IMG/VR virus record: IMGVR_UViG_3300045988_083295
Coordinates: 1,409 to 65,408 of that record
Direction: 5' to 3' (one strand)
Source of the DNA: a virus
DNA: 64,000 nt
Shown here: positions 9,001 to 62,787 of the stretch, in pieces
Layout of the letters: each line of letters starts with the position of its first letter
How positions within the stretch are numbered: the stretch's first letter is position 1
Translations under genes and position numbers: made by a program
Notes under the pieces: model-generated
Database searches by the model: none
Told to the model about the DNA's origin: nothing
What the model saw: only the letters and a program-made list of their open reading frames with translations

Positions 9001-12000
9001 ACGAAATCGCTGATGAGGTGCTTGCCACTTATTCAGGCAGACGTGGTGCTGAACGCTTGCGTGAGGAGCAGCGTAGAATTGCCAAGGGAAATGGCAGTGT
9101 GTTCGAGAAGGCTGAAGCTATCAGTGCTTTGGAACGCGTGAAGCAGGCTCTGAAGAGATTCTGGAAGGGCGTTGCTGATTTCCTGCATATTCACTATACG
9201 AGTGCGGAAGAGGTTGCCGACCGCGTGATGAAGGATTTGCTGGATGGGGTTGATCCGCGTAAGTTTGGTGATGGTGGTAAGTCTCTTGATGCCTACAACA
9301 AAATTCGCAAGCATTTCATCGGTGAGCAGGGTGCGGAGCGTGCCGACCATGCTGAAGAGGTGACAACTCGCATTGACAACCTGAACGTTGCTCGCGAGAT
9401 GGAAGATGCCAAGAAAGATGCCAAGGCTATCAAGATGGCTACCGGTTGGGAACGTGGTGCTGACGGCAAGTGGCGGTATGAGATACCCGACTTGAAGTAT
9501 TTTGGCAAGGGTGATGCTGGTTACAAAAAGGCACGTGGAAAGCAACCTTGGAGCAAGGAACTTGATGGCTTGTCAGACAAGATATTTGATGGTGAAGAAC
9601 TTTCGGAATCAGAATACCGACGTTTTGATGAACTTGCACAAAAGGAAGATGATTTCAAGACAGACTATCTGAATAGAGAAAAACCGCACCTTGCTGATTG
9701 GGTGGAGAATGACGAGTTGTTCAAGGCTTATCCCGACTTGAAGCGTGTGAATGTTGTGTTTACTGACCAACTGCCTACAAATGTGGGTGGCAGTTACAAT
9801 GAGCGTGAGCATACTATTGTTGTCAATACGAATTATGTGGGAGACATAGATTCCGTATTGGCTCATGAGGTTCAGCATGCTATTCAGAAGATTGAGGGTT
9901 TTGCGAGGGGCGGTAATCCAGAATCTATACAAGAACGGTTTAAGGCTGCTAAAAAGGAATGGCGTGCGCGTGCTTGGGCTGATGAATTGCGTTACAAGGC
10001 AGATGAAATGGGCGAACATTACAATCAAGCAGCAGTGGAAAAAGCCTTGATTGATGAGTATAAGGAGATGGGCATGGATGATGATGAATGGATGCCTGAC
10101 AAAGAAACTCGCATGAAGGGCTTTAATTACTTTGCAAGGGGTTATGCAGACAGAAGCATGGATGCTGATATTAAGAATTTCAGGTTGGCTGAATCCACTC
10201 GTGCAGACTTTAATCCTTATATGGAATACACTAAACTTGGTGGTGAAGTAGAAAGCCGTAACGTTGAGAAGCGCATGAAAATGTCCCCAGAGGAGCGAAG
10301 AGCAAGTCTTGCCGCAGAGACAGAGGATGTTTCCAGGGAAGACCAGATATTCTTGTTTGGCGAGGACGGTACTAGCATGAAGACCTCATCTGATTTGAAC
10401 GAAATGTTTGGCAATCGTTGGCTTGACGAGCAGACGAACGATGATGGCCGTCATACCACTCAGGTGAAGAGCACCATCAACTCTTACAAGAAGTTTGGGG
10501 ATTGGGTGAAGCGCGACTCCAATGGCCGTGACGTGGACGTGCTTGATGCGAGCAGTGGATTGGGGCTTGGTACGGCATGGATGAGGGACAATGGGTTCAA
10601 GGTTGATGACGTTGAGCCGTTCCCATCAGACAGTCGTGAAGCACCTACGTTCAGCAGCTATGATGAGATAGACAAGAAGTATGACTATATCATCAGCAAT
10701 GCGGTTCTCAATGTGATCCCTGACGATTGGCGTGCCAATGTGCTTCATCAGATGGCCGACAAACTCAAGGATGGCGGCAAGCTGGTGATTAATGTGCGTG
10801 GAGCGGAGGGTATCCGTAAACAAGGCATTGAGGGCAAGACTCGCACCACACTTGATGATGCTTCCGAGATTCTTGTCCATCGTCCTGACGGCAGCATTAA
10901 ATCCTATCAGAAGGGCTTCACGAAGAGCGAACTGAAGGAATGGTGCGAAAAGGAATTGGGCGAAGGTTATTCGGTTGAAATAGCGAATAACAAGAATGCT
11001 GGCGGTAGCTATGACACTGCGGTTGTGGTGACTAAAAATAACGAAAGCGACATTGAGACTATCAATACGAAATTCAATGAGGAATTGCAGCAGCAGATAG
11101 ACGGCACATTGCCAGAAGGTCACATCTATAAGATGGGCAAGCCTGGGCGCATATTGCTCTCTACTGGCGTACCAAATCTTCCCATACAGATGAATGCGAA
11201 AAGACTCCAAGTCAAGGCTACATTATTTGACCATGATTTTGACCTATCGGAAGTGAAAGATTTAGTGAGAGTCTTGCAGCACCCATTGGCAGTTTTTGCC
11301 TATGGTGACAAGTCGAAGGCGCAGAACATCATTGTTCCGCTGCAAAAAGATGGTAAGAACTTTATCGTTGGACTTTCACTCAATCCCACTGTTGGCGGTC
11401 GCAAGTTGGAAATAAACAGCATAAGAAACGTCTTTCCGAAAGACAATTCAGAATGGCTCAATTGGATAAATCAAGACAAGGCCTTGTATATAGACAAAGA
11501 AAAAATCCAAACCCTCATAGACCAACAGCGAACCAATCTCGCTGACGTGGCCTACTTGGATTTGGACTCTGTTGCAAATGTAATGGAAAATTTTGAAAAT
11601 CCAAAGGTTTCTGACGAAAATGTTGCAGATGGCGGCATTATGTTCCGCAATGGTGGGGCTGCGGATGCTGAAAAGCAGTCTCGCAGAGGAACGCCCAATC
11701 TCTACCCAGACCATATTGCACAAGCTATCTATGAGCAGTCTGTGAGCGGTTTCAAGTTTGACTTGGATGAAGCATGGCATGACTCCTTGCTCAGTGTGAA
11801 ACGTCTTCAGGAGGCCATATCCGAGACTCGCGGTGTGCCTATCAGGGACTTCGAGAACGTCTATTGGCATGCCGTTACCCTCAGCAGTGTGAATGCGGCT
11901 GAGATGGAGCAGTTGATGAATCTTCGTATCCAGCCGTTCATTGAGGCGGTTCAGGATATATGCAAGAAGCATGACCTGACTCAGGAAGACATTGAGGTGT

Positions 12001-14966
12001 ATCTCAACTGCAAGCATGGCTTGGAACGTAACGAAGCGATGGCTCGCAAGTTTGCCGAGGCCAAGGCCGAAGAGGAATTTGAGGCTGAACTCAAGAAAGC
12101 CCAGAAGACTGCAACAGCCAATCCTAACGACCAAGCTGCCCAGCTGGCTCTTTTGGATGTGCAGCTGCGCATGAATGACAGAAAGCACGAACTCTATCTC
12201 AAGAACCGCGAGAAGGATTACTCAGGTCTTACGGATATTTTCGACCCGAAGGATAAGGTCACTGGAGACAGACTGGATCTCACCGTTTCGGAATTGGAAG
12301 ATAAGGCAAAGAAGTGTGTTGATGATTTCGAGGCTAAAGTAGGTGTAGCGGAAGTGACCAAGCTGTGGGACAACATTCATGAACTCAACAACTACTCACT
12401 TCGCAAGTCCTATCTCAGTGGTCTTATCAGCAAGAATCAGTACGACAGCGTGAAACAGATGTACCAGTGGTATGTGCCTCTGCGAGGCTTCAACGAAGAG
12501 GTTGCTGGCGATGTGTACACGTATGTGACAAGAGGCGAGACGAGGACTCAGCAGCTTCTGAAGGAGGCCAAGGGACGTACTTCACGTGCTGGAGATATTC
12601 TTGCCACCATGATGAATATGGCCAATTCTGCCGTGAACCAGGGAAACCGAAATCTCATGAAGCAGAAGATCCTCAATCTCGCGCTTAACGCCAAGAGTCC
12701 TCTGTTGTCTGTGAGCAGTACATGGTATCAGACGGATGCCAACGGATTTGACGTACCCATTGAGCCGCCCATCAACGACCAGATGACTCCTTCAGAGCAG
12801 AAGGATGCCATCGAACAGTGGGAGGATACGATGGAGATGCTGGCCAAGCAGGGCAAGGTTCATCGCATGAGCGACAATCTCAGATTGAATCTCCGCACCC
12901 AGAAATGGCAGGCAGATGAGCATTGTATCCGCGTGCAGCGTGGCGGCAAGGAATATTGCGTATGGGTGAATGGTAATCCACGTGCAGCTCAAGCACTCAA
13001 TGACAGACTTGGGAATCAGGTCACCAAACCGTACAAGGCAACTGAGACTATTCTGGACAAGGCCGAAGACCTCTTCACGGATGGCTTCATAAAGATATTC
13101 AGATATATGGCTCAGAGCGTGACAAGCCTTAACCCCGAATTCGTCATCAGCAACTTCCAGCGAGACCTCGCTTCCGCTTCGCTCATCAGCACGGGCAAGT
13201 ATGGTGCAGGTTACACGAAGGACTTCCTTGTCAACGTGAAACGACTTGGCGTGCTCACAGGAACTATGTCTCACAAGAAGGAATACCGCAACGCAGCAGG
13301 TATCTATACGCTCTACAGCAAGTATAAGTCAGGAAACCTTGACAACAACAACGAGATGGAGCGTTACTTTGCCGAATTCATGGCGAACGGAGGCGAGACC
13401 GGCTACACGCAGTCGCTCAGTATTAAGGACTACCAGTCCCGTATCCAATCAGCACTTGGAGACAAAGGCTTTGTGAAATGGTCAAAGAATGCTGGCCATG
13501 CCGTTGCTGATTTCGTTGAGATGGCCAATAGGGGTGTGGAGAACACCTGCCGATTCGCAGCATACATGACAAGCCGTCAACACGGCAAGAGTGTGCTGCA
13601 ATCCATCGTTGATGCGAAGGAAGCGAGTACGAATTTCAATCTCCATGGCGCAGGAGGATTCGGTAACGCTTGGCTGAGGAAGAGCATTATCTTCATCAAT
13701 CCTGCCGTGCAGAGTATTGTGCAGTATTGCCAACTGACGGCCAAGCACCCGAAGGCCATGCTTTCCATGCTTGGCGGTACCATCGGCCTTGGTGCAGCTA
13801 TGGCATTTGCTTGCGCCAGTATGGTCGCACCGGGTGGCGGTGATCCTGACAGTAATTACTGGGATCTGTCTGATTACGTCCGACACAATTACATTGTGAT
13901 ACCTAGCGGTAATGGGAATTGGACACGTATTGCACTCCCTCCCGAAATCAGAGCCGTGTATGGCCTTGGCGTCATCGCGATGGAGGCCGCGATGGGACGG
14001 ATGAATCATAGCAGCATTCCTGCGGCTATCGGTGATCAGCTTATGCAGTTCTCCCCCGTTGCCTTCCTTGATCCACGCAACTTCTTCAACAGAAGCGACA
14101 GCGATCACCCTGTCGGCAAGACCTTGTTCAGGGCATTTATACCTACGCTCCTTTCACCTCTTGCAGATGCATACGTATTTGACGAGGATTTCATGGGGAG
14201 ACAGATTACGGGCAAGAATGACTTCAATGATGACAAGCCAGAGTTTCAGCGGACAAGCTATGATACCCTTCCGCAGTTGGTATCCTTCTCAAGGTGGCTC
14301 AACAATATCAGTGGCGGCAACGACTACAAGAAGGGCTGGATCAATGTCAATCCATCGTCAGCAGGTTATGTGGCTTCCCAATATATCGGTGGTCCCTTGC
14401 AGTTCTTCACGAAGATAGGCAAGACGGTTGCCATGATTACCTATGAGGACTTGCGCGATATGCGCAATGTGCCGTTCCTGAGCCGATTCATGACATCCAC
14501 AGACAATGACTATGGCCGCAATCAGGTAAGCAATGCAGAATTCAAGTATTGGTCTGCCATTGCAGATGATGTCAGAACTCAAATCAGAGGATTCGAGAAG
14601 GAGATTGAATCTGGCGATACAAAGAATCTTGATGACTACAAGAAACTCGTCAGCAGTAAGGAATACGAGATGTATCAGATGATTGACTATATGGATTGGC
14701 TGAAGGATATCAGGGAACTCAACCAGAAACGCAAGGAAGAGACTACGCAGGATGCCCAGAAGCAGGTTACGCTTGAGATTTATGAGGTTCGTCGCAAGAT
14801 GGCCGAATGTCTCAACAAGGCTGAAGAGATGGGTGTTTATCTGGAGATGGGTCAACTCAACCTTGAATTGGCCAATGCCAAGACCACGGAAGAGAGGGCT
14901 GCCATACAAGCCAAGATCAACGAGAAACGCAAAGAGAATCTAAAGAAAATCGGAGCGATTGAATGA
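12..14966 (+). CDS. Giant polyvalent (multi-effector) virion-type protein, >=4,984 aa, 5' end possibly outside window
   Basis: Single uninterrupted ORF. There is no in-frame stop between nt 3 and the GTG at 12, so the true start may lie upstream. It contains ParB-like, InPase-like, three HExxH, kinase-like, SAM-MTase, MuF_C-like and PLxRFG-like motifs (sub-features below). TGA stop at 14964-14966 is followed by a terminator. Confidence 0.9.
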   Translation: MLRTVKNGDDVMNRVNRQVARATRPNQQKVNLGFNNKHSLLGGGSQVQHEGKKFDAAKGDFVDQYSTEAGNVYDNTYEADAEQYNINRNKRDADTLDMVADIERQIREQEELLEKTRKASRDVKAPDNLWDALRYTMSHADGSRLDQEDIDEEAIKANITNLQNRRSLLLHGTSIGQKVGKSIGDQLAEVNKMINANLDDYYKNHPDGGPKIHDLEYNEIWSIPSNPYLDVAKRSLEDAQEMFNEAGKSVGESGLTGFGKGVIRGFGSKLFDARTWDMGYTDLKGGLSLAEVLKKADEGKPLTVEQQKMLDAKATELACAAYFSGALGRGYKAGQVTAESIPFMLEFMLNPLSGTGRSAQAMLTRYALKRFGRKATMELGEDAAKKILYGDIRQLTKSVFDKGLSKGARRLAAKTLAGKASARIAGDITGAAGMTFTTGQGRVAADMLNRATGQVKFGVDTDGKVKYTGHDAPEESSLLTAYGKAFGSQFSENYSEFMGPYISYVGGMFANGLKKIGGKYLFDGLSSLRNRSAAAVMKLPFAPMVSDFIREATKSDWAKVIKGMQKRAHWDGTAEEYLEEVAGNMLNAILVGDNDFSTEEGRGVFNLSDNIDTFLGVGLMSGAMSVSSAAGYRTPAYRARKMVENADARGEKLMGGSLWGKFRSSFDAAQSEQDKQVILTSLLQNSSLTNEGRRAALQYAIGKQFQQAVADGTFREMEEDAEKGNEVERACRAEYAEGQNIDSVEEMRDAKTRYNVLLREALAVEPNAEIYSDPQFYEQSNPNATPEQKAAMRAYAEAKAQYEGVADRMKTDMADQQQKANEQVDRFKNQTDGLITRVRLRGSDAEFYVTSGHISLNNDGTINDAATSSNLTIVDGEGNERFISRGDVVDVLAQNTPEETLEQLNDIIMNEAKAKADLIDGKLSFRAGDTFTILNNEGQEQKVTIAQDPSTMAMSAVIEGEQAAVPLTEDSMAKLQQMSDAYQESRFGKYRQEQLDAVANAENEATQEGTAPASPTAAQEETGEPTEARSYGYGESVSYVDGEGHTQEGVVHGKTPEGTYEVEFDNPPSGKNVVDEYTQEELDALVQPIPAGQTEEAIPEPTALERVPINEETGEPMFEKADSETALDALNEVTGGNEDNTTAIVRAQVEQATKALEALKKKKPSKKAPSLKGSPLAMVKAQQEAEANYNTAMEEYNAQVAAAEENLNAWSRINSLMNDRKRAIREQQEAERKAREEELHAEAVARLEEDKRIAAEKAAEQEAVGTHAVNPKIKAKWDGATKVEGNPNAITLADGSTIRGHYVLTEAGAATASHDVNNAYEPTEGFPVDENGESVNDRDYKRDRDAQRIVRDMADSYDGRALQSPVIVSKDGVVLSGNNRTMSGEIAARQGTDKAYVAHLREFGAMFGFTPEQIDGMQHPRVVFVPDEELPYDANTFARFNAEQQKKQSKPEHAVKLGKIVPDNVFTSIVGDISRFDRMSDYYADGKAAASAISQLLDAGVINEMQLPELRTGNALSAAGKELIENTLIGKVFQTSPDAVRQIISTPTLRQSVVMGLNEIANNRTLAKSGYDLSKELAAAVDLVSRAKAEAPEIYKEGMPVSPYGRQQGLFDDEYGDSRVTDGVTLLLADLLNSGKPSDLRKVLSTYNHEAASPAAGLMDMFSGDVPSKEDVLNNVLNHFRNATPKEQQAIVDAAIAERKRRAEAAEPGGGSQGGEQTENAVRGSEETSAENLGGNQADGIQEKLTEEEADAMLDRMKSIADPMPEVELTPENWMNTFGLSNKIDTPIGEVKMGESQYAKLMEKKRSKEFGMVVGTITDPDVVFIEPSSAKDGQVTERAYSYVFVKTFKKEDENVRYYSSVTVSIDGMEISVSSHYINSNKAKKKLLELNRRYTKTALISNSSDGRLAEQQDAVPDLLPTQENNAVSDLPFPKDGVSVGEDTANSTELQGNGKESSHKGFVPDEKVIEENVQRSERALGLPSSVKREKTEVKVSDNGKVMVIKTDYSANGSKASVITLLAENDGQLDWAAQSFVDGKPTSELKYDYTLSYDDMMEMFDDNDAIRQDINPLKQIARNAGIDIDALLNGKEHGTKVSIEASREKTSENEGEKTLSAQIEDASADVNTEPTEAQKEAGNYKKGHVHVGSFDITIEQPQGSVRKGTDANGKQWESKMHNTYGYFRGTEGVDGDHIDVFLSNDIDGWNRQTVFVVDQYNPDGSFDEHKVMLGFNNAEEAKRDYLANYEKGWENGRRIDVSAVNLADFEKWIASSHRKTKPFSEYSSVKKEGSSSSETKQSKSTAEEKPFNAVIEMLRKKFPDASMEALTAADRLLREQALPGERQKAIEAVAKALGLKVEWRDTMEKENGTFNPKTRTITIARDSEHALANTFGHEVTHAVRKLSEADYKNLKDAVRRLYPSEKEYNEAVQAYGEVYTDLDFDALEEELIADNIGFMIGGRNDMTQELASRMNHRVLWAIHDAMNKVRNALAKVLHIDSKKNGLLEAIDSARATIRETMANAQRIAKEKGQGLSNESDSTKQSLRTQDTTIRDALVERMRLSGMDVITDETGQRVLDMANGRDTRFEAARHKSEAARRRDEMLRAIDQAKAFISGKTEQQTRAERRERERKFREETKVLYDRVLAGNFDSVTLQLLDDFINKVTPNNYYGRPLSKRLSERTLRKVYERERTSSVDALFSRISESAVPADERTRPEAKRRIEEKKKELLKGWAIATGNWHTAVSDFTDDTKPIGSGKDSVVYHSKDGKSVIKVSKGKESARKFRPDMDNVALFNTVFPASKYEIIGYGEIDGKFVRFLRQPIVDFTDSTPLSVEERVAYMERLGFRPMNDEKTAFTNGEIVASDIQGNNIVKDRDGNIRVIDADMRFHTKEFGGKYSYPAVETDTETAPNIREQRVYHGNGANDVRFFRTANGKAYGFTVGGKIYIDPRIATSETPVHEYAHLWATALKSANAKEWQNVVGLMKGTKVWDEVKALYPELKSDDEIADEVLATYSGRRGAERLREEQRRIAKGNGSVFEKAEAISALERVKQALKRFWKGVADFLHIHYTSAEEVADRVMKDLLDGVDPRKFGDGGKSLDAYNKIRKHFIGEQGAERADHAEEVTTRIDNLNVAREMEDAKKDAKAIKMATGWERGADGKWRYEIPDLKYFGKGDAGYKKARGKQPWSKELDGLSDKIFDGEELSESEYRRFDELAQKEDDFKTDYLNREKPHLADWVENDELFKAYPDLKRVNVVFTDQLPTNVGGSYNEREHTIVVNTNYVGDIDSVLAHEVQHAIQKIEGFARGGNPESIQERFKAAKKEWRARAWADELRYKADEMGEHYNQAAVEKALIDEYKEMGMDDDEWMPDKETRMKGFNYFARGYADRSMDADIKNFRLAESTRADFNPYMEYTKLGGEVESRNVEKRMKMSPEERRASLAAETEDVSREDQIFLFGEDGTSMKTSSDLNEMFGNRWLDEQTNDDGRHTTQVKSTINSYKKFGDWVKRDSNGRDVDVLDASSGLGLGTAWMRDNGFKVDDVEPFPSDSREAPTFSSYDEIDKKYDYIISNAVLNVIPDDWRANVLHQMADKLKDGGKLVINVRGAEGIRKQGIEGKTRTTLDDASEILVHRPDGSIKSYQKGFTKSELKEWCEKELGEGYSVEIANNKNAGGSYDTAVVVTKNNESDIETINTKFNEELQQQIDGTLPEGHIYKMGKPGRILLSTGVPNLPIQMNAKRLQVKATLFDHDFDLSEVKDLVRVLQHPLAVFAYGDKSKAQNIIVPLQKDGKNFIVGLSLNPTVGGRKLEINSIRNVFPKDNSEWLNWINQDKALYIDKEKIQTLIDQQRTNLADVAYLDLDSVANVMENFENPKVSDENVADGGIMFRNGGAADAEKQSRRGTPNLYPDHIAQAIYEQSVSGFKFDLDEAWHDSLLSVKRLQEAISETRGVPIRDFENVYWHAVTLSSVNAAEMEQLMNLRIQPFIEAVQDICKKHDLTQEDIEVYLNCKHGLERNEAMARKFAEAKAEEEFEAELKKAQKTATANPNDQAAQLALLDVQLRMNDRKHELYLKNREKDYSGLTDIFDPKDKVTGDRLDLTVSELEDKAKKCVDDFEAKVGVAEVTKLWDNIHELNNYSLRKSYLSGLISKNQYDSVKQMYQWYVPLRGFNEEVAGDVYTYVTRGETRTQQLLKEAKGRTSRAGDILATMMNMANSAVNQGNRNLMKQKILNLALNAKSPLLSVSSTWYQTDANGFDVPIEPPINDQMTPSEQKDAIEQWEDTMEMLAKQGKVHRMSDNLRLNLRTQKWQADEHCIRVQRGGKEYCVWVNGNPRAAQALNDRLGNQVTKPYKATETILDKAEDLFTDGFIKIFRYMAQSVTSLNPEFVISNFQRDLASASLISTGKYGAGYTKDFLVNVKRLGVLTGTMSHKKEYRNAAGIYTLYSKYKSGNLDNNNEMERYFAEFMANGGETGYTQSLSIKDYQSRIQSALGDKGFVKWSKNAGHAVADFVEMANRGVENTCRFAAYMTSRQHGKSVLQSIVDAKEASTNFNLHGAGGFGNAWLRKSIIFINPAVQSIVQYCQLTAKHPKAMLSMLGGTIGLGAAMAFACASMVAPGGGDPDSNYWDLSDYVRHNYIVIPSGNGNWTRIALPPEIRAVYGLGVIAMEAAMGRMNHSSIPAAIGDQLMQFSPVAFLDPRNFFNRSDSDHPVGKTLFRAFIPTLLSPLADAYVFDEDFMGRQITGKNDFNDDKPEFQRTSYDTLPQLVSFSRWLNNISGGNDYKKGWINVNPSSAGYVASQYIGGPLQFFTKIGKTVAMITYEDLRDMRNVPFLSRFMTSTDNDYGRNQVSNAEFKYWSAIADDVRTQIRGFEKEIESGDTKNLDDYKKLVSSKEYEMYQMIDYMDWLKDIRELNQKRKEETTQDAQKQVTLEIYEVRRKMAECLNKAEEMGVYLEMGQLNLELANAKTTEERAAIQAKINEKRKENLKKIGAIE
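3876..4215 (+). other. ParB/sulfiredoxin-like nuclease-fold module of the giant protein
   Basis: VIVSKDGVVLSGNNRTMSGEIA (nt 4107-4172) fits the ParB N-terminal DGxxxxxGxxR signature. Domain borders are approximate. Confidence 0.6.
6411..6809 (+). other. InPase-like (polyvalent-protein inorganic pyrophosphatase-like) module
   Basis: AGNYKKGHVHVGSFDITIEQPQGSVRKG...YGYFRGTEGVDGDHIDVFLS resembles, from memory, the InPase block described for polyvalent proteins. Confidence 0.55.
7056..7440 (+). other. Zincin metallopeptidase module 1 (MPTase-PolyVal/ArdC-like)
   Basis: HEVTH at nt 7179-7193, preceded by TRTITIARDSEHALANTFG, typical of polyvalent-protein zincins. Confidence 0.6.
8253..8648 (+). 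other. Protein-kinase-like fold module
   Basis: Glycine-rich loop plus Lys (GSGKDSVVYHSKDGKSVIKVSKG), then a catalytic-loop/DFG-like segment IQGNNIVKDRDGNIRVIDAD. Confidence 0.5.
8739..8900 (+). other. Zincin metallopeptidase module 2
   Basis: HEYAH at nt 8865-8879, preceded by GGKIYIDPRIATSETPV. Confidence 0.5.
9750..9915 (+). other. Zincin metallopeptidase module 3
   Basis: HEVQH at nt 9864-9878 in the context EREHTIVVNTNYVGDIDSVLAHEVQHAIQKIEGFARGGN. Confidence 0.5.
10440..11030 (+). other. Class I SAM-dependent methyltransferase module
   Basis: Motif I VLDASSGLGLG (nt 10539-10571), an acidic residue after beta-2 (FKVDDVEP), and a later YDYIISNAVLNVIP...GGKLVINV block. Confidence 0.6.
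11109..11510 (+). other. MuF_C-like / large-polyvalent-protein-associated module
   Basis: LPEGHIYKMGKPGRILLSTGVPNLPIQMNAKRL...HPLAVFAYGD...NFIVGLSLNP...EINSIRNVFPKD matches the conserved MuF C-terminal-type block as I remember it. Confidence 0.5.
12471..12494 (+). other. PLxRFG-like motif (YVPLRGFN)
   Basis: Motif seen in the translated sequence. Assignment to the PLxRFG domain family is from memory only. Confidence 0.35.
13690..13850 (+). other. Hydrophobic/transmembrane-like helices in the C-terminal part of the giant protein
   Basis: IIFINPAVQSIVQYCQL and LSMLGGTIGLGAAMAFACASMVAPGGG are long apolar, Gly/Ala-rich stretches. Confidence 0.5.
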
Positions 14967-39629: not shown

Positions 39630-40838
39630 CTAATAACTACCCTCGCCAAATACATATTCTATCAGAGTCTTGTTGGCTTCATTGATCGCTGAGTAATCTT
39701 TCTTGACGTAAAGATTCGTTACCCTCATGGACTCGTCTATGTGGCACAACATGTCGTTGACTATATATATAGGTATCCTCACGTCATTGACCGAGATGGT
39801 GGCCATCGAATGGCGAGCAGAGTAAAATTGCAATCTGTCCACACCGATTTCCTCCCCAACCTTCTTCAAGCCGTAACTTAGGGCATCGTTGAAGGTTTTG
39901 GATGTTGAATAACGGTCAGCGAAGTTCAATACATTCTCTCCGTCAGACTTGCTCAAGTACTCATCCAGTATAGGCTTGATGATAGCAGGAACGTGAACGA
40001 CCATCTTTGCGCCATCACTTCTTCTGTCGCGTGTTTTCGTCCGGTAATAGGTGATGGTCTTGCCGTCATAGTCGGTGAGATTGTATAGGTCTATGGCGTT
40101 AATGCCCATCAGACAAAACGATATAAGGAAACAGTCGCGTGCCTGGTCGAACAGACCTTTGTCTCCATGTCGGGGAAGGTTCATGATTCTTCGGATCACG
40201 TCAACTTCTACTGCACGCTTTTCGGCCACATTCTGTTTAGGCAGTTTGAAGCCCGACAAGGACTCCTTGATTCGGATCACGTTGTTGTCGTAGTCGTTGT
40301 AATAGTTCCTCGCATCGTTGAATATCTTGACAATGGCGTTGGTATATAGAGATTTAGCACGTTTCTTGTCACCGAGATATTTGACGTAGTCGTTCATACG
40401 TGAGACGGTTATTTCGTTCATGAGAATCTTTCTGCCTCCGTGGAAGCGGATAAACGAACGGACAGCCGACCGATAATTGAGTATGCCCTTCTTACTCTCA
40501 TTCTCAGAGAGCCATCTGGAACAATAGTCGGTGAAGTATATGCCAGTAGACTCATCCTTCATCTTCAATCGTTCTACGATTCTATCGAATGGTATGTCGT
40601 TTAACTCCAGCATAAGCGTGTTGAGTTTCCTTCTATACTCTCTGATAAGGTCGTCGCCTCTGTCTAGAATCTGCTGGTTCTTAATCTTGAATGAGGCAGT
40701 TAGGTCTTTCTTCATCTGCGCGATCATAGTAGTCGGCAGATAAGTGACATGCTTGCCATGTGTGTAGCGAACGTACACAGTAAAAGTACCGTCCGCTCTC
40801 ATTCTGTCCTTGCGGACGAGCAATTTAAAATTGTCCAT
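39630..40838 (-). CDS. int: Tyrosine site-specific integrase (Bacteroidota phage-integrase type)
   Basis: 402 aa. YYRTKTRDR (box I Arg), YSARHSMAT (H-x-x-R region), MLCH and a C-terminal Tyr in NLYVKKDY. N-terminal arm-binding/SAM-like region. Confidence 0.85.
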   Translation of the reverse strand: MDNFKLLVRKDRMRADGTFTVYVRYTHGKHVTYLPTTMIAQMKKDLTASFKIKNQQILDRGDDLIREYRRKLNTLMLELNDIPFDRIVERLKMKDESTGIYFTDYCSRWLSENESKKGILNYRSAVRSFIRFHGGRKILMNEITVSRMNDYVKYLGDKKRAKSLYTNAIVKIFNDARNYYNDYDNNVIRIKESLSGFKLPKQNVAEKRAVEVDVIRRIMNLPRHGDKGLFDQARDCFLISFCLMGINAIDLYNLTDYDGKTITYYRTKTRDRRSDGAKMVVHVPAIIKPILDEYLSKSDGENVLNFADRYSTSKTFNDALSYGLKKVGEEIGVDRLQFYSARHSMATISVNDVRIPIYIVNDMLCHIDESMRVTNLYVKKDYSAINEANKTLIEYVFGEGSY

Positions 40839-42008: not shown

Positions 42009-42794
42009 CTATATGCACGTTCGGATCAATCCCATTACCCGATACAGTCTGATGACATCGTACTTGGGTACGTGGAAGGAGACGTAACGTGATTGGTTGT
42101 TCGTACTTTGACATTCGTATTCGTTGCCCCTGTCTATCAGAATTCTAATGAACAATCCGTGGTTCTTTGTATCCATCGCGTATATGTTACCGTTGAGGAT
42201 ATAAGTGTCTTTGGACAGCGCGCTGATGGCAACCTTGTCCCCTACCTTGAAGTCTGGGAGCATCGACTCATCTTGCACTTCCATGTACATCTGATATTCA
42301 GAGAATCCCGAAAAATAGGGTATCAATTCAACTCCTACTTGCTTCTTGTTTACTATTGACTCATACACATCTGTGTTTGTTTTTTTATAGAGGTTCATGG
42401 GGATGAGAGGCCGCACCTTGCTTCCTGCATCCTCAATCTCCATAGGTTCAATTCGCCTCTCTGCATAATTATTATGATTGACATTCGTGGCGAACATGGT
42501 TGCGCCGGGCGAATATAAGTTGCGTTGTTCCACGCTCGCCCCAACCGCAGGTATCTTCACCTGCCTCTCTTGTTGTGGACAAAGCATTTCTCCTTCGCCA
42601 GTTATTACCCAATTCATGTTTAGCTGCGGGTTAGCTGCTTCTATTTTGGATAATGTTTTCTTCGTTATATTCTGTTTTCCTTTTAGCATTCGTGCAAAAT
42701 TAGCCGGATCTACACCTGCATTTTTGGCGAATGCGTTTACACTACTTTCTATCGTATAGATGTACTTAATGAGGTTATCTGCTATACTAGACAT
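42009..42794 (-). CDS. CI/LexA-like repressor (HTH plus S24 peptidase domain)
   Basis: N-terminal HTH (VNAFAKNAGVDPANFARMLKGKQNI). The C-terminal QDESMLPDFKVGDKVAI resembles the S24 G-D-S-M catalytic Ser motif. Confidence 0.75.
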   Translation of the reverse strand: MSSIADNLIKYIYTIESSVNAFAKNAGVDPANFARMLKGKQNITKKTLSKIEAANPQLNMNWVITGEGEMLCPQQERQVKIPAVGASVEQRNLYSPGATMFATNVNHNNYAERRIEPMEIEDAGSKVRPLIPMNLYKKTNTDVYESIVNKKQVGVELIPYFSGFSEYQMYMEVQDESMLPDFKVGDKVAISALSKDTYILNGNIYAMDTKNHGLFIRILIDRGNEYECQSTNNQSRYVSFHVPKYDVIRLYRVMGLIRTCI

Positions 42795-42867: not shown

Positions 42868-42903
42868 TACTTTTGCATCAGAAATCAATCGGACATTGTC
42901 CGA
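42868..42903 (+). promoter_or_regulatory. Promoter/operator unit: TACTTTTG -7 box plus palindrome TCGGACATTGTCCGA
   Basis: The 25-bp stretch GAAATCAATCGGACATTGTCCGAAA is identical to 44585-44609, with the same 13-nt spacing from the -7 box. Confidence 0.6.
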
Positions 42904-44572: not shown

Positions 44573-44608
44573 TACATTTGCACCCGAAATCAATCGGACA
44601 TTGTCCGA
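44573..44608 (+). promoter_or_regulatory. Rightward early promoter/operator: TACATTTG plus TCGGACATTGTCCGA
   Basis: TAnnTTTG box, a TTTG about 20 nt upstream, and an operator palindrome identical to 42889-42903. Confidence 0.65.
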
Positions 44609-45212: not shown

Positions 45213-45323
45213 ATGAGAAAGTCAAATGCTAATTCTGAATTGCTGGAAGGAATTAAGGTCGTTGTGATGGGGGTGCTCATTATGGTGGTTGGTATCACGA
45301 TGATCTGGCTCGCCAGCGTGTAG
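45213..45323 (+). CDS. 36-aa single-TM peptide (below the ORF-track cutoff)
   Basis: MRKSNANSELLEGIKVVVMGVLIMVVGITMIWLASV, translated by hand. Lies immediately upstream of tRNA-like element 1. Confidence 0.3.
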   Translation: MRKSNANSELLEGIKVVVMGVLIMVVGITMIWLASV

Positions 45324-45341
45324 GCCTCCTCCATGGATACC

Positions 45342-45453
45342 GGATGTGGATATGCAGCCTAACGGTTACGGCTGTGAAGTTAGATGATTGCTTCGTTTCG
45401 ATTGTTTGAATTTCGTGTGAATTACATGAGGGTTCGACTCCCTCCCACATCCC
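45342..45453 (+). ncRNA. tRNA-like element 1 (112 nt, non-canonical)
   Basis: 8-bp acceptor GGATGTGG/CCACATCC, T-arm GAGGG-TTCGACT-CCCTC and a D-like hairpin GCAGCC-TAACGGTTAC-GGCTGT. No convincing anticodon arm. Confidence 0.5.
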
Positions 45454-45534
45454 TTGACACTAGCACAGTGATTTTTTTCTTAAATTAACTTTAATCGCAA
45501 GTAGACTTGCGGTTCGTGAGAATAGCAAGTCTTA

Positions 45535-45614
45535 TCGGGACAGTTGGTCAGGGTTGTTTGGGTAGCTCTTTAAGCCTTGTGGCAACTGGTGCGGTTCGAC
45601 TCCGCGAGTCCCGA
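45535..45614 (+). ncRNA. tRNA-like element 2 (80 nt, non-canonical)
   Basis: Acceptor TCGGGAC/GTCCCGA and T-arm TGCGG-TTCGACT-CCGCG. CAGTTG (45541) pairs with CAACTG (45583) in place of a D-arm. Confidence 0.5.
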
Positions 45615-45706
45615 CACCGTAATGGTTAAATGGATTGGCAACGTGGGTGTGTTAGCCCCTACGCATGATTGATTTTAAGTTGATGTTGCCCCCAAGCGAG
45701 GGGGAC

Positions 45707-45780
45707 GGGACTTTAGCTCAGACGGTCAGAGCAGCTGACTCATAATCAGAAGGTCGCGAGTTCAAGCCTCGCAGGTCCCA
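45707..45780 (+). tRNA. tRNA-Met (or Ile-lysidine type), anticodon CAT
   Basis: Hand-folded 74-nt cloverleaf: GGGACTT/AGGTCCC acceptor, GCTC/GAGC D-stem, loop CTCATAA (CAT at 45741-45743), T-arm GCGAG-TTCAAGC-CTCGC. Confidence 0.85.
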
Positions 45781-45836
45781 CCGCTTTTGGAGTTCTTGTT
45801 AAGGTGTTTTTGTGGCAGCCCGGAAAGACGGGCACG

Positions 45837-45908
45837 GACTGAATAGCTCAACGGACAGAGCATCCCCCTCCTAAGGGGAAGATGAGGGTTCGATTCCCCC
45901 TTCAGTCA
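45837..45908 (+). tRNA. tRNA-Arg, anticodon CCT
   Basis: Hand-folded 72-nt cloverleaf: GACTGAA/TTCAGTC acceptor, TCCCC-CTCCTAA-GGGGA anticodon arm (CCT at 45870-45872), T-arm with one A-C mismatch. Confidence 0.75.
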
Positions 45909-45951
45909 CTATGAGATTTTCAACATTACTAATCGAATAAGACGAAGAATC

Positions 45952-46983
45952 ATGAACAATTCTGAAAGTAACCTTATGGAAGTCGTTCCTGCTGAGGTAC
46001 AGATCATCAAAGCCAAGCAGGACGCGGAATTTGCCATGACCACCGCAGGTCAGATGTTGCGGTCGTTCGAGGCCACGCAACGCATCGCGAAGATGTATGC
46101 CACCAGTTCACTTATACCGGCTTCTCTCAAGGGTGACCCGAACAAGGAGTTCGGCACCCCCGAACAGAAGGTTCAGGCCGCTATGCAGAAGACTTACGCC
46201 AACTGCACGATTGCATTGAACATGGCACAGCGCATGAACGCTGACCCCCTCATGGTCATGCAGAATCTTTACATTGTTCACGGCCAGCCTTCCTTTTCCT
46301 CCAAGTTTCTTATTGCTTGCATCAACAAGTGTGGCCGCTATGCTCCGCTGCGCTACGAGTTCAAGGGCGAGCAAGGCACGGACGATTACGGGTGTCGCGC
46401 TTACACTTATGAGACCTCGGACGTGAAGCACAAGGAACCCATCTACGGCACTTGGGTCACAATGGGAATGGCCAAGAAGGAAGGTTGGACAACGAAGAAC
46501 GGCAGCAAGTGGCTGACCATGCCCGACCAAATGCTCATCTATCGCGCAGCCGCCTTCTTCCAGCGCAGTAACTGCCCTGAAATCAGTATGGGCTTGAGTA
46601 CTTCCGAAGAACTTCAGGACATGGGCGAACAACCCGTATATGTTGAGGAAGTGAAGGACAACGACTTGAGTTCCCTCGCTATGAAGCGCATGAAGAGACC
46701 TGCTGCCATCGCTCAAGCCGAGGCTGGAACCGCCGGCATTCGGCTTCACAAAGATCAAGCTGCCATCGCTCAAGCCGAGGCCACAACTGTAGATGGAAGA
46801 AAAGATCCAGCTGAAGCTGAAGAGGCTGAAGGTGCTCCTGCACCGCAAGGCAATCCCTTCGAGCAAGCCGAAGAAGTCAATGAACAGGCCGCAGAAGTCA
46901 ATGAACAGGCCGCAGCTAAAGAACAGTCCGAAGCAACGCAGCAGAATGCGGCCAATCAGAATAACCGCCCTTCTCTTCTCTAG
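45952..46983 (+). CDS. Single-strand annealing protein, RecT/Red-beta-like
   Basis: The conserved-looking core ADPLMVMQNLYIVHGQPSFSSKFLIACI resembles RecT-family proteins. Paired with a YqaJ exonuclease. The repetitive acidic tail has AAIAQAEA x2 and EVNEQAA x2. Confidence 0.6.
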   Translation: MNNSESNLMEVVPAEVQIIKAKQDAEFAMTTAGQMLRSFEATQRIAKMYATSSLIPASLKGDPNKEFGTPEQKVQAAMQKTYANCTIALNMAQRMNADPLMVMQNLYIVHGQPSFSSKFLIACINKCGRYAPLRYEFKGEQGTDDYGCRAYTYETSDVKHKEPIYGTWVTMGMAKKEGWTTKNGSKWLTMPDQMLIYRAAAFFQRSNCPEISMGLSTSEELQDMGEQPVYVEEVKDNDLSSLAMKRMKRPAAIAQAEAGTAGIRLHKDQAAIAQAEATTVDGRKDPAEAEEAEGAPAPQGNPFEQAEEVNEQAAEVNEQAAAKEQSEATQQNAANQNNRPSLL

Positions 46984-46986
46984 CCT

Positions 46987-47736
46987 ATGAACGCAGAATA
47001 CGGTCAGGAACAGAATACGTTAGGTTGGTACCGCGCAAGAATCGGACAGATAACGGGTAGCGCGGTCGGCAACCTGATGGGTGAAGGTCGAGGTGGAAAC
47101 TGGTCTGCTACGGCAGTCAGCTATATGCAGCAACTCGCCTTCGAGCGGACGATGGATGAGGAGATTCTCAACAATGATGAACTGTTCGCCCAGTATGTCG
47201 GCATCACTGAGGTAAAGTCCAAGATTCTTGAATGGGGACACAAGATGGAGGGTCCTGCGGCAGACCTGTTTGCCGCGATGTTCCTTCAGATCTATGAACC
47301 CAATGCCAAGTGCAACGAGGAGATTGTCCTTGAAGAGCCGCCATCGGTCAAGCATCCCACACTTGAACACTTCGCGAGTTCGCCAGACAGAATGTTTGCC
47401 AACCCGGTCACGGGGGAGAGTTGCTGCATCGAGATCAAGAGTCCGCAAGGCAAGGCGTTCGCCAAGTATGCCAGCATCATTCTTCTTCCCACGGAGGCCA
47501 TGAGGCTTGAAGCCTTGAAGAAGGCTGAACCCAACTATTATTGGCAGCTCTTCTCACACATGATGGTTACGGGTACAACTACTTGCTATTGGGTTGTCTA
47601 CAATCCATTCAACAAGGTGCCTCTGTTCAGCATGGAAGTCCATTGGGACGATGAGATTGTTCAGAAGATCGAGACGCGCGTGAAGGAGGCCAACAAATAC
47701 ATTGACGCATTGGCGCGCAATATGATTGGCCTATGA
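46987..47736 (+). CDS. YqaJ/lambda-exonuclease-like PD-(D/E)XK recombination exonuclease
   Basis: WYRARIGQITGSAVGNLMG (YqaJ N-terminal signature) and SSPDRMF...CCIEIKSPQ (D...E-x-K motif). Confidence 0.8.
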   Translation: MNAEYGQEQNTLGWYRARIGQITGSAVGNLMGEGRGGNWSATAVSYMQQLAFERTMDEEILNNDELFAQYVGITEVKSKILEWGHKMEGPAADLFAAMFLQIYEPNAKCNEEIVLEEPPSVKHPTLEHFASSPDRMFANPVTGESCCIEIKSPQGKAFAKYASIILLPTEAMRLEALKKAEPNYYWQLFSHMMVTGTTTCYWVVYNPFNKVPLFSMEVHWDDEIVQKIETRVKEANKYIDALARNMIGL

Positions 47737-62394: not shown

Positions 62395-62787
62395 ATGGAT
62401 AAATACATTCTGAAGATGACTGTCCTCGCTGAGGGCATGTCGATGGAAGAAGCACAAGAGAAGGGCTATCTCAACAGAATAGATGCCGAGAAGATGCTCA
62501 GCAAGGGAGGTATCATGACGGGTGCACTCGTTCGGTACGAGAATGGATATCAGTCGTGGATGCCAGAAGATGTGTTCAATTCGTGTAGAAAGAAGAACAG
62601 CACCTTCCTAGAACGTCTCGTTGCCGAACGTGACGAACTTGTTGAGAAGATGGAGAAGTTGACCCTCTTCCTCAAGTCAGACATCTTTATGAATATGAAC
62701 GATTACTCACGTGATCTCCTGATGGAGCAGTACCGCATTATGACTAACTATGTGGACTGCCTTAATCGTAGGATTAAGGGGCACTGA
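62395..62787 (+). CDS. Hypothetical protein
   Basis: ORF track. Confidence 0.6.
   Translation: MDKYILKMTVLAEGMSMEEAQEKGYLNRIDAEKMLSKGGIMTGALVRYENGYQSWMPEDVFNSCRKKNSTFLERLVAERDELVEKMEKLTLFLKSDIFMNMNDYSRDLLMEQYRIMTNYVDCLNRRIKGH

Follow-up and report, generated by a model that had tools for sequence, protein, structure and literature searches.

The DNA analysed here, hereafter the window, is a 64,000-nucleotide (nt) stretch of the IMG/VR virus record IMGVR_UViG_3300045988_083295 (positions 1,409 to 65,408 of that record) and belongs to a temperate phage. Within the window lies a compact cluster of RNA genes, all on the same strand, in the order E1, leader hairpin (LH), E2, tRNA-Met and tRNA-Arg. 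E1 (45342..45453, plus strand, 112 nt) is an anticodon-less tRNA-like RNA gene, and E2 (45535..45615, plus strand, 81 nt) is a Y-shaped tRNA-like RNA gene that lacks a D-arm. The last two genes are canonical tRNAs, a tRNA-Met/Ile2-type gene with the anticodon CAT (45707..45782, plus strand) and a tRNA-Arg gene with the anticodon CCT (45837..45909, plus strand), both called by ARAGORN and scoring 66.9 and 66.3 bits, respectively, under the Rfam tRNA model. E1 and E2 are conserved, are structured at the RNA level, and present a tRNA body without an anticodon arm in an early operon. The two elements were defined from their sequences, minimum free energy (MFE) folding and conservation in the clade, in addition to the covariance model R1 in the case of E1.

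E1 opens with an 8-bp acceptor helix formed by GGATGTGG (45342-45349) and CCACATCC (45445-45452), the third pair of which is A-U. It is followed by the 4-nt linker AUAU (ATAT in the DNA, 45350-45353), a D-like hairpin GCAGCC-TAACGGTTAC-GGCTGT (45354-45375), a G.U-rich long arm of 39 nt (45376-45414), a variable segment of 13 nt (45415-45427), and a T-arm GAGGG-TTCGACT-CCCTC (45428-45444) that abuts the 3' acceptor strand; the final base is a C (45453). The acceptor helix stacked on a perfect T-arm and the D-like hairpin had been noticed in a preliminary description of the DNA, and both are found exactly where it placed them. It had further reported that no 5-bp stem with a 7-nt anticodon loop could be placed, with which we agree: a search of the sequence and of the MFE structure for such an arm, with U33 and R37, revealed none, and the MFE structure has at the expected site a G.U-rich arm of 15 pairs closed by an 8-nt loop. 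By contrast, its description of an aberrant core does not hold, as the D-arm is kept and covaries, its loop contains GG, and the variable loop is conserved. E1 is a tRNA body in which the anticodon arm has been exchanged, not a bare minihelix. The fold is unusually stable, with a z-score of -4.2 and none of 200 shuffled sequences being as stable. GGTTCGANTCC, the word found in the T-loop, is present three times in the window, where 0.13 occurrences would be expected. The acceptor could also be drawn as seven pairs plus a G-1:C73 pair. Such a pair is the main identity mark of tRNA-His, and E1 might be histidylated through this eighth pair, which is specific to the clade.

E2 has a 7-bp acceptor formed by TCGGGAC (45535-45541) and GTCCCGA (45608-45614), with G-C as the third pair. 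The long arm (45542-45587) carries the D-loop-like segment AGUUGGUCAG at its start, and its base is formed by AGUUG (45542-45546) paired with CAACU (45583-45587). A two-residue GG junction (45588-45589) leads into the T-arm TGCGG-TTCGACT-CCGCG (45590-45606), which is separated from the acceptor by a bulged A (45607) missing from the preliminary description; the discriminator is a C (45615). The acceptor, the T-arm, and the pairing of the bases after the acceptor with those before the T-arm, which together create a Y shape without a D-arm, had all been recognized before and are all present in the sequence. E2 folds with a z-score of -1.9. For both elements the reverse strand folds less well than the plus strand, and the arms are rich in G.U pairs.

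The conservation of the cluster was assessed in a clade of 18 loci that carry both elements and a RecT protein 83-100% identical to that of the window, corresponding to 15 distinct sequences. Exact-protein look-ups in ENA and Logan assemblies supplied these relatives, which originate from human gut metagenomes such as those of Hadza samples. The fraction of variable columns is 7.1% in E1 and 8.6% in E2, compared with 3.9-4.1% in tRNA-Met and tRNA-Arg, 10-56% in the spacers and 19-24% in the flanking coding sequence. The two elements are thus about equally conserved, and both are somewhat more variable than the true tRNAs. Their low variability relative to the spacers points to purifying selection. 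Every stem substitution within the clade is a transition between a Watson-Crick and a wobble pair. In E1 these are U to C facing G, G to A facing U, and a D-stem G.U replaced by G-C, all of which keep the pairs; in E2 all five substitutions (A39G, C42U, U43C, U20C and U56C) keep the pairing. The spacer between E2 and tRNA-Met (45616-45706) has only 13% variable columns, compared with 45-56% for both spacers that flank E1, and may hold another RNA element.

Beyond this clade, E1 resembles a large family of tRNA-like genes, here termed the E1-like family (loci are given by L numbers). Its members have a common plan: a 7-8 bp acceptor, an AUAG linker, a D-arm with a 5-6 bp stem and an 11-nt GG-containing loop UAAWCGGAUAG, a variable middle region, the variable loop ACAUUA, a T-arm with the loop UUCGACU or UCCGACU, and the 3' acceptor strand. 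The pattern CATTAGN{2,3}GGTYCGACTCC, which covers only the junction of variable loop and T-arm, was found in 101 IMG/VR loci and in 69 loci of GTDB genomes. Merely 11 of 174 pattern matches overlap an ARAGORN tRNA, five of these being tRNA-Cys. The covariance model R1, built from 26 full-length members with the clade of the window excluded, gave 117 matches at E<=1e-4 in 100 viral loci and 43 matches at E<=1e-3 in 99 other loci, a few of which are canonical tRNA-Cys or tRNA-Sec. Altogether, the matches number about 150 and are spread over gut phage contigs of IMG/VR and genome bins labelled mostly Prevotella, Alloprevotella, Alistipes and Bacteroidales; the hosts named in the genome records are mostly Prevotella, Alloprevotella, Prevotellamassilia, Alistipes, Bacteroidaceae and Bacteroidales. 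The few matches in bins with other labels may be mis-binned. Two copies are found in the sequence NZ_LT629841.1 of the cultured Prevotellamassilia timonensis Marseille-P2831, and two or three tandem copies per locus are frequent.

The helices of the family are strongly supported by covariation. In 31 diverse sequences with the middle region spliced out, pairing is intact in 96.2% of the cells, and double-sided, compensatory changes are seen at 16 of 17 pairs. Covariation scores 0.871 versus 0.175 in shuffled alignments, with none of 500 shuffles reaching it, and slid controls pair at 40-51%. These sequences were chosen on the pairing of the acceptor and the T-stem, whereas the D-stem was never a criterion; all five of its pairs covary. 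RNAalifold independently gives the same three helices, and 72 distinct model-aligned sequences have 98.2% of the cells paired, again with compensatory changes at 16 of 17 pairs. The anticodon arm is replaced by a stretch of 19-170 nt, and therefore the RNAs cannot read codons. When the members are folded with the three helices imposed as constraints, the middle region of several short ones has no hairpin or stable pairing, whereas the long members carry structured, subfamily-specific inserts. None of the acceptor pairs is common to the whole family, A predominates at the discriminator position, and about one in five T-loops has a C in place of the universal U55. The absence of a conserved acceptor pair and the C at U55 argue against a decoding or ribosomal use and against one common synthetase; a common charging enzyme for the family was considered and rejected on the first ground.

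Under R1, E1 scores 38.4 bits over its full length (model positions 1-89) with an E-value of 8.5e-8, compared with 19 bits for the tRNA-Arg of the window. It departs from the family core in having AUAU rather than AUAG (three of four bases), a 6-bp D-stem, the 10-nt loop UAACGGUUAC, and UUACAU where the family has ACAUUA. The D-loop nevertheless keeps AACGG.UA. The architecture is that of the family, but E1 is clearly divergent. At the syntenic site, typical members directly precede RecT orthologues that are 54-76% identical (L038, L041, L042, L214/L216 and L218), and the 8/5 stacking of E1, in which an 8-bp acceptor sits on a 5-bp T-stem, also occurs in L041 and L042ii. From the R1 score, the synteny, the shared architecture (AUA linker, extended D-stem, AACGG.UA loop and no anticodon arm) and the 8/5 stacking taken together, E1 is assigned to the family as a divergent member. 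E2, with 13 bits and an E-value of 0.59, falls outside it, and the model R2 built for E2 finds beyond the clade only generic T-arm and acceptor matches at E>=0.02. E2 is a clade-specific variant of the anticodon-less tRNA-like design. Y-shaped neighbours of E1-like genes without a D-arm occur in L038, L041 and L042; they are like E2 in kind, and homology is not demonstrable. The one at L041 91-159 lacks both the D-arm and the anticodon arm, and its stack could be drawn as 9 bp plus 3 bp (CAGGAAGCC...GGG-TTCGACT-CCC-GGCTTCCTG), as in 9/3 allo-tRNAs.

The family is overlooked by standard annotation and apparently has no name. No Rfam 15 model matches it, and literature searches by sequence string and by topic retrieved no description of it. 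A BLAST search against GenBank phages with an 801-nt region matched tRNA-Met-like segments only, and a typical family member matched nothing; annotated relatives are absent from that collection. RecT relatives of about 50% identity in IMG/VR have no tRNA or tRNA-like cluster. A looser pattern, TAACGGTTAC...GGTTCGANTCC, mostly retrieved unrelated tRNA-like genes with inserts, which were rejected as homologues. In such unrelated phage contigs we observed uncalled tRNA-like genes with a normal acceptor, D-arm and T-arm and an insert of 40-50 nt in the anticodon region (L023 346-463, 1931-2058 and 2180-2291; L025 6007-6130 and 6612-6726; L028 1131-1248, 2106-2229 and 2338-2455). Their inserts share the A/C-rich motif CAGCAAT(T)A(C/A)-A/C-rich, and they may form a class of their own, made up of interrupted or non-canonical tRNAs of phages.

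The body of the family is closest to the tRNA-Cys type, with its AAACGG D-loop, CAUUA variable loop and UUCGACU T-loop, which suggests descent from a phage tRNA of this type. Two 73-nt genes, L143 10248-10320 and L133 2105-2177, combine the body marks of the family (AAACGG D-loop, CAUUAG and UUCGACU) with a proper anticodon arm whose loop is UUCAUAA (CAU), and score 41-44 bits under R1; ARAGORN makes no call for the L143 gene, the one that was checked. They may be intermediates between real tRNAs and the anticodon-less family. Such intermediates, together with tRNA-Cys being the best-scoring canonical tRNA under R1 and E2 being confined to one clade, are what would be expected if the elements were decaying pseudo-tRNAs, that is, functionless duplicates of phage tRNA genes from which the anticodon arm has disappeared. 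We regard this as very improbable. Compensatory covariation is strong across about 70 distinct sequences from phage contigs and bins mostly labelled Bacteroidales, the variability of the elements in the clade is far below that of the spacers, and synteny is kept down to 54% RecT identity. Moreover, locus L038, whose RecT is 71% identical, keeps both a Y-shaped and an E1-like element (uncalled, at 2196-2285 and 2372-2458) in the order opposite to that of the window, with canonical tRNAs missing altogether; of the cluster, it is the non-canonical part that has persisted better in this lineage. For E1 the pseudo-tRNA explanation is largely refuted.

We then compared the two elements with canonical and unusual tRNAs. 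Both have an acceptor stacked on a 5-bp T-stem with a UUCRANY loop, and both of these stems covary in the E1-like family; the anticodon arm of a canonical tRNA is absent from both. ARAGORN, run with default settings and with introns allowed, calls tRNA-Met and tRNA-Arg alone in the cluster, as does Rfam 15 at gathering thresholds. The Rfam tRNA model (RF00005) matches neither E1 nor E2 even at E<=10. At this relaxed threshold E2 reaches 18.1 bits under the tRNA-Sec model RF01852, for which the gathering value is 47, E1 does not match RF01852, and the only Rfam match of E1 is a 17-nt stretch of its T-arm under the tmRNA model. ARAGORN in tmRNA mode found no tmRNA. Models for tRNA-Sec, tmRNA, Y RNA and plant-virus tRNA-like structures were set aside for both elements, all matches being sub-threshold. 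The E1-like genes of L173, L042, L086, L041 and L038 likewise have no tRNA match in Rfam at E<=1. The runs of ARAGORN and of Infernal against Rfam thus yield no ordinary cloverleaf for either element, and in related phages the paired positions are kept and covary. The earlier proposal that the elements are tRNA mimics and not decoding tRNAs is therefore sustained: standard tools fail, the pairing covaries, and the anticodon arm is dispensable in the E1 family.

The elements have nonetheless some traits of unusual decoding tRNAs, be they of the 8/5 tRNA-Sec-like, allo-tRNA-like or intron-containing kind or, for E2, an ochre suppressor with the anticodon TTA. The 8/5 arrangement of acceptor and T-arm in E1 and its 6-bp D-stem are those of bacterial tRNA-Sec, the apex of E2 contains UUUAA, and ARAGORN can be made to yield Arg(tcg) and Leu(taa) if its threshold is relaxed to 90% and introns are left free. 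The forced models were rejected, as they mismatch the stems and break the covarying D hairpin. An anticodon arm with five pairs and a 7-nt loop that includes U33 and R37 is missing from E1 and E2 alike, neither the tRNA nor the tRNA-Sec model of Rfam succeeds, family members have no anticodon arm, and the inserts are too small and too varied for group I introns. The TTA noted earlier at the apex of E2 is indeed there, but no anticodon stem surrounds it. The suppressor idea attached to it falls, given this lack of a stem, an apex that varies in the clade (A39G), and no sign of TAA recoding: the candidate in-frame stops are all junctions of adjoining frames, and none could be tied to a gene with an internal TAA. 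The suggestion of very divergent 8/5-type tRNAs is likewise now very unlikely, as members of the family have no anticodon arm. The decoding explanation is close to refuted, and we consider it extremely improbable. In three loci a tRNA with a CTA anticodon (amber-reading, labelled Pyl by ARAGORN) lies within 600 nt of E1-like genes, which hints that some of these phages use TAG recoding.

LH (45503..45532, plus strand), which ends 2 nt upstream of E2, has an 8-bp stem (AGACTTGC/GCAAGTCT) and a conserved 14-nt loop GGTTCGTGAGAATA; the invariant loop of this segment (45503-45532) is given as GGUUCGUGAGAAUA. The loop occurs 58 times in the fetched loci (26 distinct occurrences), usually 3-12 nt 5' of an E1-like gene. 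In these sequences, which were picked by the loop only, 91.7% of the stem cells are paired, seven of eight pairs show compensatory changes, and the covariation is 0.937 versus 0.286 in shuffles. The loop GGUYCGYGA..RAUA reads as a T-loop-like half (GGUYCG) joined to a D-loop-like half (GGAUA/GAAUA), and LH has no match in Rfam. Hairpins also stand before the two canonical tRNAs: the GC-rich CCCCC-AAGCGA-GGGGG (45689-45704) lies just 5' of tRNA-Met and GCCCG-GAAAGA-CGGGC (45818-45833) just 5' of tRNA-Arg, both finishing 2-3 nt ahead of their tRNA. Hairpins with comparable loops, namely GAAAGAC, AAACAGAC, GAGAGACAG and ACAGACGCUGGAUAGC were seen 5' of E1-like genes in other phages. It seems that a 5' leader hairpin accompanies every tRNA or tRNA-like gene of such clusters.

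A hairpin a few nt 5' of every element means that cleavage would yield hairpin-ended RNAs, which is of interest for an explanation in which E1 and E2 are cis-acting punctuation: the folds would be cut signals for RNase P and RNase Z on an early polycistronic transcript, setting the mRNA ends of the upstream small open reading frames (ORFs) and of recT or freeing LH, and the excised RNAs would have no function. Protein genes of a single operon, in the same orientation, flank the elements, no promoter or terminator was called in between, and minihelices of the E2 type without a D-arm would suffice for RNase P. The t-elements of plant mitochondria and the mascRNA of MALAT1 work in this manner: they mimic the acceptor and T-arm inside a longer RNA, in which RNase P and RNase Z cleave to create ends, and the t-elements are an established precedent (PMC1920247). 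However, the real tRNAs of the cluster already supply cleavage sites, a processing signal does not need the near-invariant D-loop, AUAG linker and ACAUUA loop, and tandem arrays of two to three copies with large inserts conserved in subfamilies are unexpected. Computation cannot separate the processing-signal role from the decoy role discussed below; we rate punctuation as rather unlikely, if still a serious contender.

The variable middle region invites another explanation, in which the tRNA body is a chassis for processing and stability and the insert is the functional part, be it an antisense small RNA, a protein-binding aptamer or a sponge. In the window the functional module would then be the 39-nt G.U-rich arm of E1 and the long arm of E2 with its invariant apex. 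The inserts of 19-170 nt are specific to subfamilies and conserved in sequence within them, sub-hairpins such as those with the loops GCUGGAUAGC and ACAGACGCUGGAUAGC recur, and tandem copies at one locus (L173) bear different inserts. The architecture is that of the engineered tRNA scaffold for expressing recombinant RNA, reportedly introduced by Ponchon and Dardel in 2007. On the other hand, minimal members of 76-78 nt, whose insert is almost missing or unstructured, are still conserved, so that the body alone is apparently enough. No target complementarity or partner was identified, and the arm of E1 is weakly paired and near-invariant only within a narrow clade. We deem such natural scaffolds unlikely, although together with punctuation they are the main competitors of the reading proposed below.

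The surroundings of the cluster are those of a lysogeny switch. A Bacteroidota-type tyrosine integrase (39630-40838) and a CI-like repressor with a helix-turn-helix and a Peptidase_S24 domain (42009..42794) are encoded on the minus strand, both identified with Pfam and PHROGs; the repressor gene is divergent from the RNA cluster and marks the switch. Among the small rightward ORFs that follow the repressor are a 99-aa ORF and a 36-codon ORF with a single transmembrane segment (45213..45323, plus strand), directly upstream of E1 and part of its early operon. The latter, already pointed out in the preliminary description, is real, being called as a 36-aa gene in the relatives L031-L040. The hairpin and T7 run reported after E1 (45459-45479) are present in the window; they are specific to it and fail a terminator scan, and the corresponding spacer of the relatives is longer, different and without a T run. 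A promoter and terminator scan of 45300-45950 returned nothing, with a sigma-70 consensus that is not applicable to Bacteroidota. Past the cluster, the first protein gene encodes a RecT-like annealing protein (45952-46983, plus strand), directly followed by a YqaJ exonuclease (46987-47736, plus strand), both by PHROGs and Pfam, and further downstream by DUF4494, HU, VRR-NUC and Lin1244_N proteins. The left half of the window holds structural genes and a polyvalent protein ORF (12-14966, plus strand) of at least 4984 aa that runs off the left end. Its domains include InPase, Kinase-PolyVal, MuF_C, LPD14/23/38, ddrB-ParB, an SprT-like domain and a methyltransferase; such polyvalent proteins are believed to be injected in order to counter defence.

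The setting recurs in the family. Among 70 E1-like loci, 38 have a homologue of the CI-like repressor within 3 kb upstream on either strand, and 22 have canonical tRNAs within 600 nt. Downstream genes vary: 18 loci have RecT/YqaJ, 17 have a 315-aa family and 15 have DUF4494-like proteins. Two further observations concern the phage itself. A 15-bp palindrome TCGGACAATGTCCGA, followed by TTGATTTC, has identical copies at 42889-42903, just past the start of the CI-like repressor, and at 44594-44608, about 1.7 kb rightward among the small rightward ORFs; the palindromes could be repressor operators or bidirectional terminators. The protein at 62395-62787 has a domain related to crAss001_48, despite the integrase and CI-type repressor of the phage.

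In a temperate phage with an integrase, one might also look for the meaning of the elements at the DNA level, as attachment (att) remnants of tRNA genes, an origin, or inverted repeats bound by a protein. Integrases often target tRNA genes, and LH is an inverted repeat around a conserved core near replication genes. Yet att sites hold the 3' part of a tRNA gene only, whereas both acceptor strands are present here; the many G.U pairs would read as A.C mismatches in the minus strand, whose fold is the poorer one. The elements are also 4.5 kb away from the integrase. A DNA-level role is in our judgement hardly credible.

The nearest analogues are the species 1 and 2 RNAs of phage T4 (rnaC and rnaD), stable RNAs of 139 and 119 nt in a phage tRNA cluster beside tRNA-Arg. 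T4 rnaC ends in a T-arm CCGGG-UUCGAAU-CCCGG flanked by a short terminal helix and has large extra arms and no cloverleaf. It is not homologous to the E1 family, however: under R1 it scores 19.2 bits, against 18-22 bits for ordinary T4 tRNAs, and it lacks the AUAG/CGGAUAG/ACAUUA core and a full 7-bp acceptor. T4 rnaD has no T-arm, and T4 is a virulent coliphage, whereas the E1 family belongs to temperate Bacteroidales phages. To our knowledge, the function of these T4 RNAs is still unknown after about 50 years.

YrlA RNAs are similar in being non-decoding and having a module that mimics the D-arm, T-arm and acceptor of tRNA, and some are phage-encoded. In M. smegmatis, the YrlA RNA has an acceptor of 7 bp, is cleaved by RNase P and has CCA added (PMC4201824). 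They are nevertheless defined by the Ro60/Rsr-binding helix with GNCGAAN0-1G and by an adjacent rsr gene, neither of which is seen at E1 or E2, and most YrlA RNAs have an acceptor-like stem without a free CCA end. The flanks of E1 and E2 do not lengthen the terminal helix, there is no Rfam match, and no TROVE/Ro60 domain was detected with Pfam among about 30 proteins of the window on both sides of the cluster. The tRNA-like domain of tmRNA consists of an acceptor, a T-arm, a D-loop analogue without a D-stem and a long helix, giving a Y shape as in E2. However, tmRNA is roughly 300-400 nt long, with a reading frame for the tag, pseudoknots and a G3:U70 pair for alanylation, whereas E2 has 81 nt, a G3-C pair at that position and no ORF.

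The 7-bp acceptor and T-arm that cleavage of the t-element type requires are present in E1 and E2. The t-elements and the mascRNA of MALAT1 differ in being eukaryotic or organellar and in lacking a conserved D-arm core; no phage family of this kind has been described, and in E1 and E2 it is the excised element that is most conserved. The likeness to tRNA-Sec and allo-tRNAs lies in the 8-bp acceptor, 5-bp T-stem and 5-6 bp D-stem of E1, L041 and L042ii, and irregular tRNAs of the allo-tRNA type have been found in phage tRNA clusters (PMC5389517). But tRNA-Sec and allo-tRNAs decode, with an anticodon arm and a long variable arm, neither of which the E1 family has in conserved form; RF01852 features a 4-nt D-loop and a UCA anticodon, as opposed to the 10-nt D-loop of E1 and its lack of a UCA arm. 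Fremin et al. (2023) compiled by comparative genomics a catalogue of candidate structured RNAs from IMG/VR phages, whose tRNA-like candidates DNAVirus_215 and DNAVirus_8881 overlap ARAGORN tRNA-Cys calls (PMC10690425). That catalogue may include the E1-like family uncharacterised; the paper contains no account of an anticodon-less family, its context or its leader hairpin.

Combining these results, we propose that E1 and E2 are functional genes for non-decoding tRNA-shaped RNAs, matured by the tRNA enzymes and acting in trans as mimics or decoys of the tRNA body, a reading that we hold with about even confidence. The two elements would be co-transcribed in the early rightward operon and excised like tRNAs by RNase P, 3'-end processing and the CCA-adding enzyme, because they present an acceptor/T-arm stack and, in E1, also a D/T elbow; the YrlA RNA of M. 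smegmatis sets a precedent for such processing (PMC4201824). Once released, the RNAs, about 112 and 81 nt long plus CCA, would be stable and build up, and would occupy in trans a protein that reads the shape of tRNA and not the anticodon. The favoured target would be a host anti-phage nuclease or modifier that attacks tRNAs, with the decoys made at the very start of infection or induction. A decoy role is favoured because the genes are early and often in tandem, and because the phage has other counter-defence hardware.

Several points weigh against this proposal. Processing, stability and action in trans are all inferred, and no tRNA-directed defence system could be linked to RNAs of the E1/E2 type. 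When the 70 loci were searched for a consistent partner protein, nothing emerged apart from the CI-like repressor and a varied set of genes for replication and recombination. Against nucleases that recognise the anticodon, a decoy that has no anticodon loop would be of no use. As the cluster has two real tRNAs, E1 and E2 could be mere extra processing sites. The inserts are conserved within subfamilies, and in the long members the variable module may carry the function rather than the tRNA body. The helices of E2 have modest support, consisting of five Watson-Crick/wobble transitions, and a motif scan for E2 returned only the narrow clade, with no homologue outside it. Furthermore, canonical tRNA-Cys from the pattern-selected loci reaches 41.7 bits under R1, and therefore the score of E1 alone is no proof of membership, for which synteny and architecture are needed.

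A more far-reaching possibility, which we advance tentatively and at well below even confidence, is that temperate phages of gut Bacteroidales have a two-component RNA system, comprising an anticodon-less tRNA body and a companion hairpin, that neutralises tRNA-directed immunity or stress sensing. Its RNAs would be made at the onset of infection, matured by the host tRNA enzymes, and mimic the body or elbow of tRNA, while the long members would also serve as natural tRNA scaffolds that deliver other RNA modules. Such a system would be described in none of the reference libraries and papers searched.

The finding belongs with the non-decoding tRNA mimics, of which a handful are known, namely tmRNA, Y RNAs, the species 1 and 2 RNAs of T4 and viral 3' tRNA-like structures, and it is widespread. 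New are a large, covariation-supported family, no member of which standard annotation picks up, and another conserved hairpin motif, which is tied to this family; the models R1 and LH could join annotation pipelines. The family is moreover a natural experiment on the portion of a tRNA that RNase P, the CCA-adding enzyme, modification enzymes or tRNA-targeting defence systems require for recognition. If the scaffold idea is true, nature preceded the engineered tRNA scaffold; if the decoy idea is true, these phages employ an anti-defence strategy made of RNA only. Being located at the lysogeny switch of phages that abound in the human gut, the family probably matters for infection or induction.

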